From Zootoca vivipara (Eukaryota): a stretch of DNA of 64,000 bases. Where the stretch lies: positions 5,394,001 to 5,458,000 of the forward strand of contig NC_083282.1 of assembly GCF_963506605.1 (NCBI RefSeq), given 5' to 3'. Shown one piece after another: positions 13,074-45,489 of the stretch. Position numbers and translations under genes: made by a program. The notes beneath the pieces are model-generated. The model did no database searches. It was not told the DNA's origin and saw only the letters and a program-made list of their open reading frames with translations. Each line of letters opens with the position of its first letter. Position 1 is the stretch's first letter.

Positions 13074-14835
13074 TATGAATCATAGATCATATGAATGTAG
13101 AGTTGGAAGGGACCCCAGAGGTCATATAGTCTGCAGTGCGGAAACTCATTTGGGAGGATTATGACTGATTGTGTGGCATTATGATTAGTGCCACAATTTT
13201 TTGGGGGCTGTCTGTGTGATTAATGATTCTGGAACATTGACAAAGTGGCTGTCATGCAGATGTGTTTTCAGTAGATTGCATTCCAAAATCCACAGTTGAG
13301 CTATGTCTTTATTAGAGCCAACCCAAATATCACAAAATAATGAAGTAGCTTTTGATTCCTTCATTATTCACCATCTGGTTGGATGTTAAGCAAGCAGGCA
13401 TGGGGAGAGAAGCAAGCTCACTTGAAGGCACAGCCTTTGTGGCTTCAACTTCAAGGCAGCTTGTTTTTCTCCCCACTCTTTGTTTGCTTAGCATCTATCC
13501 TGAAGAACTCAAAAGCTTGCTAGATGTTTTTGTCATACTTTGACCGGTCTTATGTTGTCTAACTGATGGCCTTTCATTTTAATTGATTATAAGTGATGAT
13601 TTTATCATAAGAACTGGCCCTTGGTGGTGAGAGTTTATTCTTTACTTGTACTGTCGTCTGCATGGCAGTCTGTTGTCTCTAGACTACCATGGTGGTATTG
13701 TCATTGTGATTTTTTGGTAGCCTTAAGATTCTAGACCAGTTTTCTCCAACCTGGTGTCCTCCAAACATTTTGGAATAAAATGTCCACAATCTCTAACCAC
13801 AGGTCACGTTGGCTGGGGCTGATAGGAGTTGTAGTTTAAAAGGAGACTAATAGAAATGTATTGATTTCATTGGGTCTACTCTGAGAATGTTAGATATACT
13901 CACTAAGAAAACAATGTGGATTAAGAATAGCAAAGCAAACTAAGTGATTTGATTGAGAATCCTAGGCCAAATCTTCCTACTCGCTTGCTAAATATTTGGC
14001 CTTTTCCCAACTTCATCCAAGCTACATAGTTTAAAAAAGAATTTCTAAGTTTCCTAGAATGTCCTAACATCTAACATTTTTGGATAAAGTTATTAATGAC
14101 CTAATTGGTGCTATGGGCCAGGGTGCTCTTGTCTTCATCTGGAAAGTCAGACAGGAACAAAGGAGGAAATGAGTCACTCTGCAAACATCTTTTGGACCAG
14201 ATATTTTCCATCTTTTATGTTAATTGCATTCCTTGCATAGGTGAGCCCACCTAGGTTGATAATGGCTGTCCATATTCTAACCAGGGAAATCATAATTGGA
14301 CTGTTGTGTACCCTAGTCTCTCTGATACATTCAAACCCAAGTTTTCCAGGTCCAAATTTACCACTGTTCACTTCTCATGAAATTCTGGCCTATGCACAGT
14401 GACCATTCCAGTGAGATTCTTCTGCGAACCTCATTGTAAGTGTTTCATCGCTTTTCCAGGGCAGAAGTAGAAATGTGTCATGTTCTCTGTCCAGAATTTC
14501 TTATCTTTCATTTTCAAAAATGTTGTGCATTGCCTACAGAACAGCTATAGGACTTAGAAAGTTACATTAGCTTTTGGAATAGGGGTAAGGGAATGGCTGA
14601 GAGAATATTAGTCATCTTTAATATAATATATTCAAAGAGGTTATAGTAAGAAGACATCTTAGTGGTATATATAAACAGCCTTCTTCATTCTAAGTAAGTT
14701 CAAATGACAACAAGTTGTGCCAGTATCCTGCCACAACACGGTTAGTAGAGCTGTTACTATCTCCCATTTCAGTACAGGATGAATGGATCACAGTTAAGTC
14801 ATTATGAGGCGCTTAAGTTGGGCTTTGTTCTTGTC

Positions 14836-14892
14836 AGCCAATCACTGGGCTTGCACTTGGTTGCTTATTTGAATAGCCAGAACTATATAAGA
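14836..14892 (+). promoter_or_regulatory. Histone H2B-type core promoter: CCAAT, octamer-like H2B box, TATA
   Basis: gCCAATca (CCAAT 14838-14842), CTTATTTGAATA 14864-14875 (octamer ATTTGCAT with one mismatch), TATATAA 14884-14890; ATG 76 nt after the TATA end. Confidence 0.7.
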
Positions 14893-14965
14893 TTATTTCA
14901 GGGGACAGGGTATGAGCATTTTCAGGCAGGCAGGGAATTTGGCTGTGTGAACTTAAAGTCAAACA

Positions 14966-15361
14966 ATGGCTGCTACCACCCGGAGAACCAGGAAAAAAAG
15001 CCAGGTGCATCAAAGGCAACGGTACAGGACACAGTATAGGCAGAGAAGGCCCAGAGGGGGGAAGATACTTGGGAGGCATGCAAAACATGGCCATGGAAAG
15101 AAGCTCCCTGACAGAAGGCCATCCAAGAAAGCACAGAAACTGCGGCTTGACAGTGTTCGAATGACCAACGAAGCCCAGAACATCTTGCATTTCTGTGTGC
15201 ATGACCTCTACAAGAAGGTGTCCTTGGCTGCTGAGCGCTTGAGGAAAAAGAAGCGCCATGTCTCTATTACTGTCTCAGATGTAAGAAATGCCCTGAAAAA
15301 GATCATGCCAAGGAAGTATGACAGAAAGTCTGTATCCTCCATTCCCTGCAAATGCCGTTAG
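14966..15361 (+). CDS. Divergent histone H2B-like protein (131 aa), intronless, nested in RC3H1 intron 1
   Basis: Kozak aaacaATGG; 41/131 residues K+R; ungapped by-eye alignment of aa 66-124 to H2B 54-112 (A..I....V.D........A.RL........IT......A.....P.......VS); own promoter and polyA signal. Confidence 0.8.
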   Translation: MAATTRRTRKKSQVHQRQRYRTQYRQRRPRGGKILGRHAKHGHGKKLPDRRPSKKAQKLRLDSVRMTNEAQNILHFCVHDLYKKVSLAAERLRKKKRHVSITVSDVRNALKKIMPRKYDRKSVSSIPCKCR

Positions 15362-15742
15362 AGACATCTCTCCCCTTTCCTATGACAGGCTTAGAAATGG
15401 AAGAAAGAAGGGAAAGGGGGGAAAGCACTAGCCTGAGAGAAAATCCAGTACTTTGCCTGCCTGAAAAAAAACACCACCTTCAAATTTCCAAGCAATCCTG
15501 TAACCTACCTTTTTATTACTGGATCAACATCCCCACTAATAATGAACTCGAGGAAGGGCAGAATCTGGCATTCTGAAGATCATGACAAGATGATTATCAT
15601 ATTGCCCTTATGCTGAATCAGGGAGATGGATTATTGGGTGTTGGAAGAAAATGACTTGTCAAGTTGTGGAATATCAAGGACTCTAATCAGCAACTGTGGA
15701 GCATGTGAGGTGTTCCCTAAAGGGAGACATATTCCCTTTTTC

Positions 15743-15748
15743 AATAAA
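15743..15748 (+). terminator. Polyadenylation signal of the nested H2B-like gene
   Basis: AATAAA ~380 nt after the stop, followed by GU/U-rich sequence (ctgtgtcttt...ctggttctt, ~15776-15800). Confidence 0.55.
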
Positions 15749-17374
15749 ACAGGATCTGTGCAGGAGAACTCATCACTGTGTCTTTAATATTCTGGTTCTT
15801 CAGAACTATACATTTATTAGGGGAAGGCTAGCTTATGTAGTTTATGGAGGCTGTGTTTTGCATACTCTTTAGAACTTGTAATAATGTTTGACTACGATTT
15901 TTTTTAAAATAAAAATAAGTGATATCAGAATTAGATAGAAATGGAAAGTATGTAGGATGCAACACATTGGGATTGTATCACTGAATATTGCTGTAAATGT
16001 GTCTTGAATTGCATTGCCTTTAAAATTGTGGAAAAGGAATTTTAAACAGGACATTATGTTAGGGGCTTTATCTGAGAATATGTCCATATTGGTCCCAAAG
16101 ATTACCTGATAAAGGGCTTTTTTGTGTACTCACTTTTTGCCATGTATGTTCAGTATCGTAGCAGCTGTTACTTTAAAATGGTGATTAGGTAGTGAATTGC
16201 ACTGGTTCTTTTCCTAATGTTTCTTCCTTAGTTGGAAAGATGTTGCAAATAGGCATTTTATACAATTTATATAATAACCCTGAAAGGTTAACAATTCAAG
16301 TGCTTACTGTATTTCCCAAAATGCCTATTTGCAACATCAAGTCAAATGTTTGGGGTACCTATCCCCAGAAGTCACCATAGGACATATGCATATAATATCC
16401 CTGATGTAAGGATATAATTTCTCTCTTTTCCTCTGGTGCAATAAAATTTTTCTATGGATTTGCAGCTGAGGCAACTGCTAGTTTGCCCCAAATTTTGTGG
16501 TAATCAAGGCGCTTCAGAAGCAAAAGTAAGGTCCAGTTTTTTCAATGTTCAAACTTCTCTACCACTATCATGTGGCATATTTTACTTGATCAGAAGAGAG
16601 TCTTTGTTTCACTGTTCTGTATAGCTGTGGAAATTCTGTGTAACAGAAACTCGAAACGTTTCATGTATGTTGCAACTGAGTCATACTTTTATAAAGGTGT
16701 AGTTGTGATTTTAACTTTGAGAGATGTTTGAATTGTGAAAGCTTTGCAGCGCTGTTAGAATGAGGATTTTGAAGTGCAGGAGACAAATTTTTATTTGTCT
16801 GTTATTATGATATATTTTGAAATGTCAGTTGAACAAAAAATTGCAGACCTGCAGTGAATTGGTTTGTGGTTCTTTTTGTGAAAGTGTTAACTACATTTGT
16901 TAATGGGGAAATGCCAGTGGTGTGTTTTGTACTTTTAAAAAATAAAACCTTTATGGTAACCTATGATGTGTACCAGGAAAAAATATATTCTGCAACCTGT
17001 ATAATTTTTGATAATTACTGCATTTACATGGCTGTTTTTGCATGATTTTTAAACTTCTGGAGCACCTCAGTGGGAGTTGGGGCACGGTGCTTTAGTGGTT
17101 CTGCTCCTATTCCAGGGCCAATTCCAGAAAGCAGTTAGGGAAGACTGCTTTTCAGTCCCATGGGAGTTGTCGTGTGGTGTCCTGCATGGTTCCATCTTCT
17201 TCTGCCATGCTGTGAGGCCTCTGAGCTGTCATCTAATGTGGAGTGAAGTGCTATCAATATGCAGGCAACACCCAGCCCTGTTCCATCTGAATCAGAAGAG
17301 ATGGCTGAGGTGTTCGATCAGTGCTTGGAGGTGGTGACTGACTGAATTTGAGCAGTGTTAGAAATTCAGATATA

Positions 17375-43586: not shown

Positions 43587-45489
43587 AACTGGCTGTCCAA
43601 CGAGGCCTTACGAATAGCGGAGGAGAGGAGGCAAGCAAAATGCAAGGGAGATAGGGAAAGATACAGGAAACTGAATGCAGATTTCCAAAAAACAGCAAGG
43701 AGAGACAAGAGCAATGCAATGAGCAATGCAAAGAAATAGAGGAAAACAATAGAATGGGGAAAACCAGAGATCTGTTCAAGAAAATTGGAGATATGAAAGG
43801 AACATTTCGTACAAAGATTACCATAATCAAGGACAAAAGTGGTAAGGACCTAACAGAAGCAGAAGACATCAAGAAGAGGTGGCAAGAATACACAGAGGAA
43901 TTATACCAGAAAGACATGGAGGTTTCATACACCCCAGGTAGTGTGGTTGCTGACCTTGAGCCAGACATCTTGGAGAGTGAAGTCAAATGGGCCTTAGAAA
44001 GCACTGCTAATAACAAGGCCAGTGGAAGTGATGATATTCCAGCTGAACTATTTAAAATTTTAAAAGATGATGCTGTTAAGGTGCTACACCCAATATGCCA
44101 GCAAGTTTGGAAAACTCAGCAATAGCCAGAGGATTGGAGAAGATCAGTCTACAGCCCAGTCCCAAAGAAGGGCAGTGCCAAAGAATGCTCCAACTGCCGC
44201 ACAATTGCGCTCATTTCACACGCTAGCAAGGTTATGCTTAAAATTCTACAAGGCAGGCTTAGGCAGTATGTGGACCGAGAACTCCCAGAAGTGCAAGCTG
44301 GATTTCGAAAGGGCAGTGGAACCAGAGACCAAATAGCAAACATGCGCTGGATTATGGAGAAAGCTAGAGAGTTCCAGAAAAATGTCTACTTCTGCTTCAT
44401 TGACTATGCAAAAGCCTTTGACTGTGTCGACCACAGCAAACTATGGCAAGTTCTTAAAGAAATGGGAGTGCCTGATCACCTCATCTGTCTCCTGAGAAAT
44501 CTCTATGTGGGACAAGAAGCTACAGTTAGAACTGGATATGGAACAACTGATTGGTTCAAAATTGGGAAAGGAGTACGACAAGGTTGTATATTGTCTCCCT
44601 GCTTATTTAACTTATATGCAGAATTCATCATGCGAAAGGCTGGACTAGATGAATCCCAAGCCGGAATTAAGATTGCCGGAAGAAATATCAACAACCTCAG
44701 ATATGCAGATGACACAACCTTGATGGCAGAAAGCGAGGAGGAATTAAAGAACCTTTTAATGAGGGTGAAAGAGGAGAGCGCAAAATATGGTCTGAAGCTC
44801 AACATCAAAAAAACCAAGATCATGGCCACTGGTCCCATCACCTCCTGGCAAATAGAAGGGGAAGAAATGGAGGCAGTGAGAGATTTTACCTTCTTGGGCT
44901 CCTTGATCACTGCAGATGGTGACAGCAGTCACGAAATTAAAAGACGCCTGCTTCTTGGGAGAAAAGCAATGACAAACCTAGACAGCATCTTAAAAAGCAG
45001 AGACATCACCTTGCCGACAAAGGTCCGTATAGTTAAAGCTTTGGTTTTCCCAGTAGTGATGTATGGAAGTGAGAGCTGGTCCATAAAGAAGGCTGATCGC
45101 CCAAGAATTGATGCTTTTGAATTATGGTGCTGGAGGAGACTCTTGAGAGTCCCATGGACTGCAAGAAGATCAAACCTATCCATTCTTAAGGAAATCAGCC
45201 CTGAGTGCTCCCTGGAAGGACAGATCCTGAAGCTGAGGCTCCAATACTTTGGCCACCTCATGAGAAGAGAAGAATCCTTGGAAAAGACCCTGATGTTGGG
45301 AAAGATTGAGGGCACTAGGAGAAGGGGACGTCAGAGGACAAGATGGTTGGACAGTGTTCTCGAAGCTACGAACATGAGTTTGACCAAACTGCGGGAGGCA
45401 GTGCAAGACAGGAGTGCCTGGCGTGCTATGGTCCATGGGGTCACGAAGAGTCGGACACGACTAAACGACTAAACAACAACAACAACAAA
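43587..45489 (+). mobile_element. BovB (RTE) LINE, 5' truncated, RT domain nearly intact
   Basis: FIDYAKAFDCVDH, GVRQGCILSPCLFNLY, NLRYADD, FELWCWRRLLRVPW; (CAA)n tail; 13-bp TSD agacattccattg (43574-43586 / 45490-45502); premature TAG at 44123. Confidence 0.96.

Follow-up and report, generated by a model that had tools for sequence, protein, structure and literature searches.

The window, that is the whole 64-kb stretch of DNA that was analysed, contains a K/R-rich open reading frame (ORF) within the presumed first intron of its host Roquin-1 (RC3H1), on the same strand as that gene; spliced reads were not encountered. The first coding exon of the host matches Roquin-1 with an E value of 4e-49, the donor at 2786 is located within a CpG island and the acceptor is found at 26004. 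The ORF, referred to below as the nested gene, is part of a module with dispersed paralogues elsewhere in the genome:

2786-26004, + strand: inferred first intron of Roquin-1 (RC3H1), donor and acceptor read from the sequence
14770-15790 (approximate), + strand: duplicated module (promoter, ORF, 3' UTR and poly(A) site), delimited by homology with dispersed paralogues
14966-15361, + strand: nested K/R-rich ORF of 131 aa, intronless
15743-15748, + strand: AATAAA poly(A) signal, with a GGAT word after it in 7/7 compared family members

The helix-2/helix-3 region of H2B corresponds to residues 61-124 of the nested protein, and helix 1 was not aligned. The best matches of the protein in the structure database are H2B, the family profile reached an E value of 3e-10 against single H2B chains, and profile alignment to the genome's own H2B gave a probability of 96.7, restricted to the helix 2-3 region. 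The identity to H2B is 19% over 68 columns and the complete, near-invariant H2B fold is absent; a Pfam search returned no Histone match to the nested ORF, the AlphaFold model is weak (pTM 0.29) and Foldseek found no match with that model, so that the structural comparison is uninformative. No H2A match was obtained in the 64-kb window. LINE-like reverse-transcriptase frames occur in the Roquin-1 introns, for example at 44126-45472 of the window, one of them open over 448 aa (judged by eye).

Four sequencing runs (X1, X5, X6 and X7), which bear no tissue label, are not on record as RNA and were guessed to be so, provided transcription evidence, and two studies give contigs over the ORF. X1 contains one RNA-type contig without joints at 14952-15765, which ends 17 nt past the AATAAA at 15743, and the paralogue on C12 is also present in this run; X7 yielded RNA-type pieces over 15007-15673, again without joints. 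The nested gene is thus a single ORF covered by an unjointed RNA-type contig, and an intron as in H2B.K and H2B.N is absent. Low-depth RNA-type contigs extend across the promoter in X5 (14673-14922) and X6 (14810-15056). Five differences were listed for 14673-14922 in X5, none of them within the boxes, a number too small for a test. The contigs show no start, level or tissue, and the gaps in cover (promoter in X1 and X7, ORF in X5) were not counted as evidence.

Upstream of the ORF, the following elements are found:

14789-14806, + strand: upstream block of the family, with a MYB-like CAGTTA in 2/7 and ATTA at -83/-84 in 5/7 promoters
14824-14828, + strand: SOX-like WTTGT, here TTTGT, one base off the cited core
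14838-14842, + strand: CCAAT box, read from the sequence, at the same place in 7/9 family and 9/11 canonical H2B promoters
14864-14875, + strand: H2B box CTTATTTGAATA, read from the sequence
14867-14874, + strand: altered octamer ATTTGAAT, inside the H2B box
14868-14873, + strand: TTTGAA, the canonical CHR word, inside the altered octamer (PMC4176359, PMC4974476)
14884-14890, + strand: TATATAA
14884-14891, + strand: TATA box TATATAAG
14917-14921, + strand: initiator-like CAYTT, at TATA+33 in 6/7 family promoters, with the predicted transcription start site (TSS) at ~14918

The motifs lie 82 nt upstream of the ATG of the nested gene, and 9 nt (14875-14883) separate ATTTGAAT from the TATA box. 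The CCAAT box, H2B box, TATATAA and 9-nt gap were all located at the positions given in the preliminary description of this DNA, and the family-conserved CAYTT at 14917 agrees with the TSS at ~14910-14920 proposed there, as a sequence-based prediction. An ORF spanning the promoter (14779-15039) was considered as coding sequence and rejected, being without homologue and out of frame with the nested gene.

We attach practically no weight to the possibility that the motifs assembled by chance or arose independently after insertion of the gene. Every motif is short, and a loose composite pattern searched across the genome (1.44 Gb) gave 16 matches versus one for the reversed control, of which seven lie before family ORFs, one before a canonical H2B gene and eight, half of the total, have no ORF longer than 57 aa. 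Against this, the window contains a single instance of the composite CCAAT-N18..32-ATTTGMAT-N8..9-TATAWA, which was seen in 0/100 dinucleotide shuffles. Seven related ORFs are preceded by the same layout, and their spacers and upstream block can be aligned, so that the alignment of the paralogues refutes a chance origin. The octamer-N9-TATA arrangement with at most one mismatch has two matches versus 0.19 expected; genome-wide, a tighter composite pattern gave seven matches versus one in the control, and six of these seven are family genes.

For comparison, 11 full-length H2B genes among 17 matches in the lizard genome served as the canonical set. CCAAT, an octamer-type box and TATA are present in nine of these 11 promoters (the two genes without the layout, L035 and L038, were omitted from the spacing table), versus no octamer-TATA pair in 15 H2A, H3 and H4 promoters. 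The three motifs of the nested gene are an inherited histone-H2B core promoter, the layout being H2B-specific in this genome, and the H2B ancestry originally proposed from the motifs is supported both by this distribution and by the match of the protein or family profile to H2B. The accompanying view that the canonical layout has been kept holds for the order of the boxes and for the CCAAT-to-TATA distance, which is 46 nt in the nested gene and 46-47 nt in the nine canonical promoters. It does not hold for the gap, since 9 nt is the minority spacing (2/9 promoters, versus 8 nt in 7/9), nor for the octamer, which is altered: the A of the nested box corresponds to C in each of the nine canonical boxes, and the exact octamer ATTTGCAT is absent from the nested gene. 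The classic human H2B promoter, quoted in the preliminary description with a 9-nt octamer-to-TATA spacing, was not found in print. As a separate observation, one canonical H2B gene (L044-L045, C13:44.457 Mb) lies in two pieces ~1.5 kb apart.

The nested gene is one of nine H2B-derived basic ORFs at six loci in the genome, all of which are uninterrupted, as are those of canonical H2B. A protein search yielded five paralogues at three further loci, and a promoter scan added three ORFs that this search had missed, namely L019 (C3:3.898 Mb) and L030/L031 (C17:20.66 Mb), whose tie to the family is weak at the protein level (probability 30, E 6e-4). Because the promoter scan detected ORFs so weakly linked by their proteins, the family is better recognised by its non-coding DNA. 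A DNA search with the nested promoter alone found the C12 paralogue at 71% (E 5e-10). The full promoter is retained in seven of the nine copies, with a CCAAT-TATA distance of 46-47 nt; the tandem copies L005 and L006 (C2:18.05-18.07 Mb) have open frames, lost CCAAT and octamer through deletion and were left out of the seven-member promoter statistics. C17-type proteins are barely recognisable as H2B, and the motifs RNxCxIRFP, CPL and YSDxEIFYxLA are kept in monitor, cobra, agamid and geckos.

The family promoters resemble one another beyond the three boxes. In the block from -110 to -51, 12 of 21 family pairs exceed z=3 versus none of the 63 family-canonical pairs, and above -110 no homology was detected among the seven family promoters; pairwise homology begins 96-147 nt above the TATA box. 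In a promoter tree, six of the seven family promoters fall on one starred branch (95/93), L004 is not placed and the C-to-A change is not ordered. The MYB-like site was rejected as a family element, being confined to 2/7 promoters, and CRE half-sites were found in 0/7. At the 3' end, the histone stem-loop (Rfam RF00032) was found at 0/7 family loci and at 3/3 canonical loci tested; a pyrimidine/purine hairpin after the stop codon received no support either (z -0.7 at the nested gene, no consensus pairs). In the 3' UTR of the nested gene a complement to the 5' end was noted:

15454-15467, + strand: 14-nt perfect complement of 14919-14932 (predicted mRNA 5' end), in the 3' UTR at stop+92

The duplex between the two segments has a z of -4.7, and shorter complements are placed at stop+101..104 in L002 (10 nt), L004 (9 nt) and L005/L006 (7 nt); none was seen in L003, L019, L030 and L031. 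Pairing of the two ends of the nested mRNA is thus possible, judging from base complementarity.

In 13 stretches flanking the paralogues, the only H2A match was a weak one of 31 aa (E 0.08), and a scan of 270 of 450 candidate stop-free segments from nine of the 13 stretches revealed retroelement domains and one WWE domain only. A trio of H2A genes near the C2 family genes was considered as partners and rejected, as these are stem-loop H2A genes (L069-L070, C2:17.66 Mb); they have long Ala/Lys-rich C-terminal tails and lie ~390 kb from the C2 trio. L072 (C4:28.79 Mb) contains a pair of divergent H2A genes that seem to have an intron in the 5' UTR; one of the two ends in SQEF and is presumably H2A.X-F-like. 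The C3 family gene is followed, ~5.5 kb downstream, by a chromodomain-bearing LTR retroelement (L065:6452-9999).

These comparisons bear on the source of the nested gene. A canonical H2B gene could have moved from the cluster straight into the intron together with its promoter and still be run by Oct-1/OCA-S, a route we regard as quite improbable. It would account for the similarity of the core promoter to canonical promoters (z>3 in 38/63 family-canonical pairs), it would agree with the control of H2B through ATTTGCAT, the octamer bound by Oct-1/OCA-S (PMC5706932), and the nested locus could itself be the founder of the family. The nested promoter is, however, nearer to its paralogues (mean core z 8.9 within the family) than to any canonical gene (3.6 for family-canonical pairs), and the copies at C7:67 Mb and on C2 retain the ancestral C, so the nested copy is derived. 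The family promoters are CpG-poor: the CpG observed/expected ratio is 0.17 in the nested promoter, whereas 10/11 canonical H2B genes reach 0.69 or more, and turtle and bird relatives, described below, indicate an older founder. Taken together, the family-only upstream block, the poly(A) signal, the missing stem-loop and the lack of an H2A neighbour or H2A remnant in the window argue that the nested gene descends from a diverged founder and not straight from the cluster.

We therefore favour, with some reserve, the reading that DNA-level duplication of an H2B-derived gene, by then diverged and polyadenylated, brought the promoter into the Roquin-1 intron, where it is predicted to be active in the germ line and not in S phase. 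An ancestral replication-dependent H2B gene of early sauropsids would have lost its stem-loop and its H2A partner; the resulting founder would have acquired a tail rich in Arg/Lys as well as a poly(A) site while keeping CCAAT, box and TATA, and copies of ~1 kb would then have spread to at least six loci, with flanks outside the functional parts eroding since. The earlier proposal that the gene moved with its promoter stands as far as the joint movement is concerned, but the source would be a diverged polyadenylated paralogue rather than a canonical histone gene.

Whether the copies spread as DNA or through RNA was weighed separately. At six loci, the copies are homologous over ~140 nt above the predicted TSS, a segment that a plain retrocopy would lack. 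The statement in the preliminary description that a retrocopy would not carry upstream elements is too strong: ~3% of expressed retrocopies inherit the parental promoter (PMC4772013), and host RNA contains the promoter, the gene being sense in a host intron. Retroposition of an RNA begun upstream of the promoter, for example a host transcript with its 3' end at the poly(A) site of the nested gene, would mean that a retained promoter says nothing about movement as DNA; it is nevertheless unlikely in our judgement. It is attractive in that every family member is intronless and that homology fades near the poly(A) site (z>3 in 1/21 family pairs at +26..+65), so that homology past the transcript is seen on the 5' side only and its 3' limit coincides with the poly(A) site. 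The nested copy is also sense in the RC3H1 intron with RNA-type contigs over its promoter, so a promoter-carrying RNA may exist, and germ-line expression favours retroposition, with retrocopies of H2B.K and H2B.N on record (PMC8857922). On the other hand, the inheritance of a promoter, given its base rate, would have had to occur in at least five dispersals and with similar 5' limits (-96 to -147), which disfavours plain retroposition; above -110 no paralogue matches the RC3H1 intron, and local duplication of DNA is the simplest account of the tandem copies on C2 and C17. A-rich remnants are lacking as well: after the poly(A) signals the A fraction is 0.14-0.30 with no A-rich tract, and the T+G fraction is 0.48-0.72 after each signal.

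The flanks themselves do not separate the two mechanisms, since the 3' limit of homology is as in a retrocopy and tails or target-site duplications would not have survived in copies of this age; terminal repeats and target-site duplications were not evident, the copies being old enough to have lost such marks. Promoter retention is also inflated by survivorship, because promoterless copies die, and L005 and L006, with intact ORFs and neither CCAAT nor octamer, speak against retention as a rule. A young dispersed canonical H2B fragment, L043 (C2:61.37 Mb), is 98.9% identical to L035, extends from about codon 12 to 26 nt beyond the stop codon and has neither promoter nor stem-loop; its lack of a promoter was counted in favour of the DNA route for the promoter-bearing copies. 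On balance, we consider spread of the family copies at the DNA level likely.

Orthologues of the nested gene are 66-96% identical: 96% in a lacertid and 66-80% in agamids, snakes and geckos. A core of 50 residues is nearly invariant among close relatives, and two related runs each show four synonymous and no nonsynonymous differences in the fold/core, versus three synonymous and three to four nonsynonymous differences in the tail. A profile search gave 621 matches at E <=0.001; among the best 150 of these 621, 20 of which were named, are relatives in skink, anole, gecko, many turtles, kiwi and duck, together with two ordinary H2B records. The turtle and bird relatives include XP_065271328, XP_024050846/7 and XP_067169730/4. 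In a tree of 25 rows, which include no named mammalian variants, the relatives lie on one side of a starred branch apart from canonical H2B, a topology subject to the long-branch caveat. The simplest reading is that the founder is older than the split of squamates, turtles and birds, which dates to ~280 Myr.

Constraint on the promoter, as assumed from the start, finds indirect support in database proteins that were mis-extended, such that their N-termini are translated promoter (P0006, P0014, P0029 and P0030, annotation artefacts). The comparison across species thus relies on back-translated protein with ambiguous codons and not on DNA. The gecko read-through P0006 aligns with the translated nested promoter ungapped, with 14/21 codons matching and the boxes at the same spacing; 8/9 motif codons match versus 4/10 spacer codons (p=0.04). 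P0030 (18/23 codons) and P0014 (14/30 codons), each compared with a paralogue promoter, likewise keep the spacing, and in two reading frames their codons allow the A variant. In P0029, which is related to the C7:67 Mb copy, the upstream and CCAAT part is retained, but the codons do not fit an intact octamer end and TATA.

The substitution in the octamer creates the word TTTGAA, which is found at TATA-16 in 5/7 family boxes (the A variant) and at that position in 0/9 canonical promoters; the two copies that retain ATTTGCAT are those at C7:67 Mb and on C2. Among CHR words, TTTGAA is bound most strongly by DREAM, and TTTGCA, the form typical of histone genes, is bound poorly (PMC4176359), while the LIN54 site is TTYRAA (PMC4974476) and MTL5-MuvB acts in pachytene spermatocytes (PMC8386835). 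In addition, WTTGT is located 14-15 nt above CCAAT in 6/7 family promoters and at that position in 0/9 canonical ones; SOX30 binds ACAAT in testis (PMC8136829) and ATTGT is given as a SOX motif (PMC13219418). As the octamer has changed to a CHR-type word, a role of Oct-1/OCA-S at the nested gene is doubtful, and the nested box has probably ceased to be a plain Oct-1 site. The promoter has a TTYRAA near the predicted TSS with CCAAT upstream, as CHR promoters do, whereas its TATA box TATATAAG counts against the CHR reading, CHR promoters being usually TATA-less (PMC4176359). In the proposed course of events, a SOX-like site would have been gained and the octamer would have become ATTTGAAT in 5/7 copies, which would favour LIN54/MTL5-MuvB over Oct-1, and a start at ~14918 would still be directed by NF-Y and TBP through CCAAT and TATA. 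Germ-line control is predicted from the CHR word, the SOX-like word, polyadenylation and the basic tail, hinting at a shift from S-phase to spermatocyte/spermatid control, with the reservation that short words can mislead.

Several known systems share features with this gene. Replication-dependent H2B promoters (PMC5706932) have the same order and spacing of boxes with a CCAAT-TATA distance of 46-47 nt; unlike them, the nested promoter is CpG-poor, has the C-to-A change in the octamer and contains SOX-like and ATTA elements, and the gene is without H2A partner and has a poly(A) signal in place of the stem-loop. The mammalian variants H2B.1/TH2B, H2B.L, H2B.N, H2B.W and H2B.K (PMC8857922) are likewise divergent, non-canonical products of lineage-specific duplication, and mammalian germ-line H2B variants are mostly polyadenylated, as is the lizard family. 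In contrast to them, and comparing by description, the lizard family is intronless, occurs in squamates, turtles and birds and has no recognisable helix 1. In the available text of PMC8857922, H2B.K is the only variant found in chicken and no lizard is mentioned; that of PMC8685415 contains no description of an octamer in the TH2B promoter.

Orphons are solitary histone genes dispersed from clusters. The family resembles them in being solitary, dispersed, histone-derived and accompanied by flanking regulatory DNA, and differs in that it stems from a diverged founder and not from the cluster, is long-lived and is under selection. CHR/MuvB promoters (PMC4176359, PMC4974476, PMC8386835) share TTTGAA near the predicted TSS and an upstream CCAAT; unlike them, the nested promoter has a TATA box, and its CHR word, predicted here from sequence, derives from an octamer. 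Sea urchin and Hydractinia have sperm-specific H2B variants (PMC5011920) with comparable extended basic tails and a proposed function in sperm DNA packaging, but these variants are replication-dependent with whole folds, and an independent origin is presumed. The family was not found described in the literature on squamate H2B variants and sperm basic proteins that was covered, most subscription journals being outside this coverage, and its database names are automatic labels only ('H2B-like', 'hypothetical').

That a duplicated histone gene retains its promoter is ordinary; a promoter that outlasts the protein is notable. Here, the promoter ties nine scattered ORFs to H2B and provides a practical handle on the sauropsid H2B-derived family. 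We tentatively raise the possibility, without regarding it as the probable one, that this family of reptiles and birds represents undescribed, ancient, protamine-like sperm chromatin genes, with the promoter as their best-preserved part. The C-to-A change would then have converted the Oct-1 S-phase box into a MuvB CHR site and, together with the SOX gain, placed a replication histone promoter under spermatocyte/spermatid control. Should the new CHR word and the SOX site be functional, they would illustrate a one-base route from replication-coupled to germ-line control, and the family would supply candidates for sperm chromatin proteins of reptiles.
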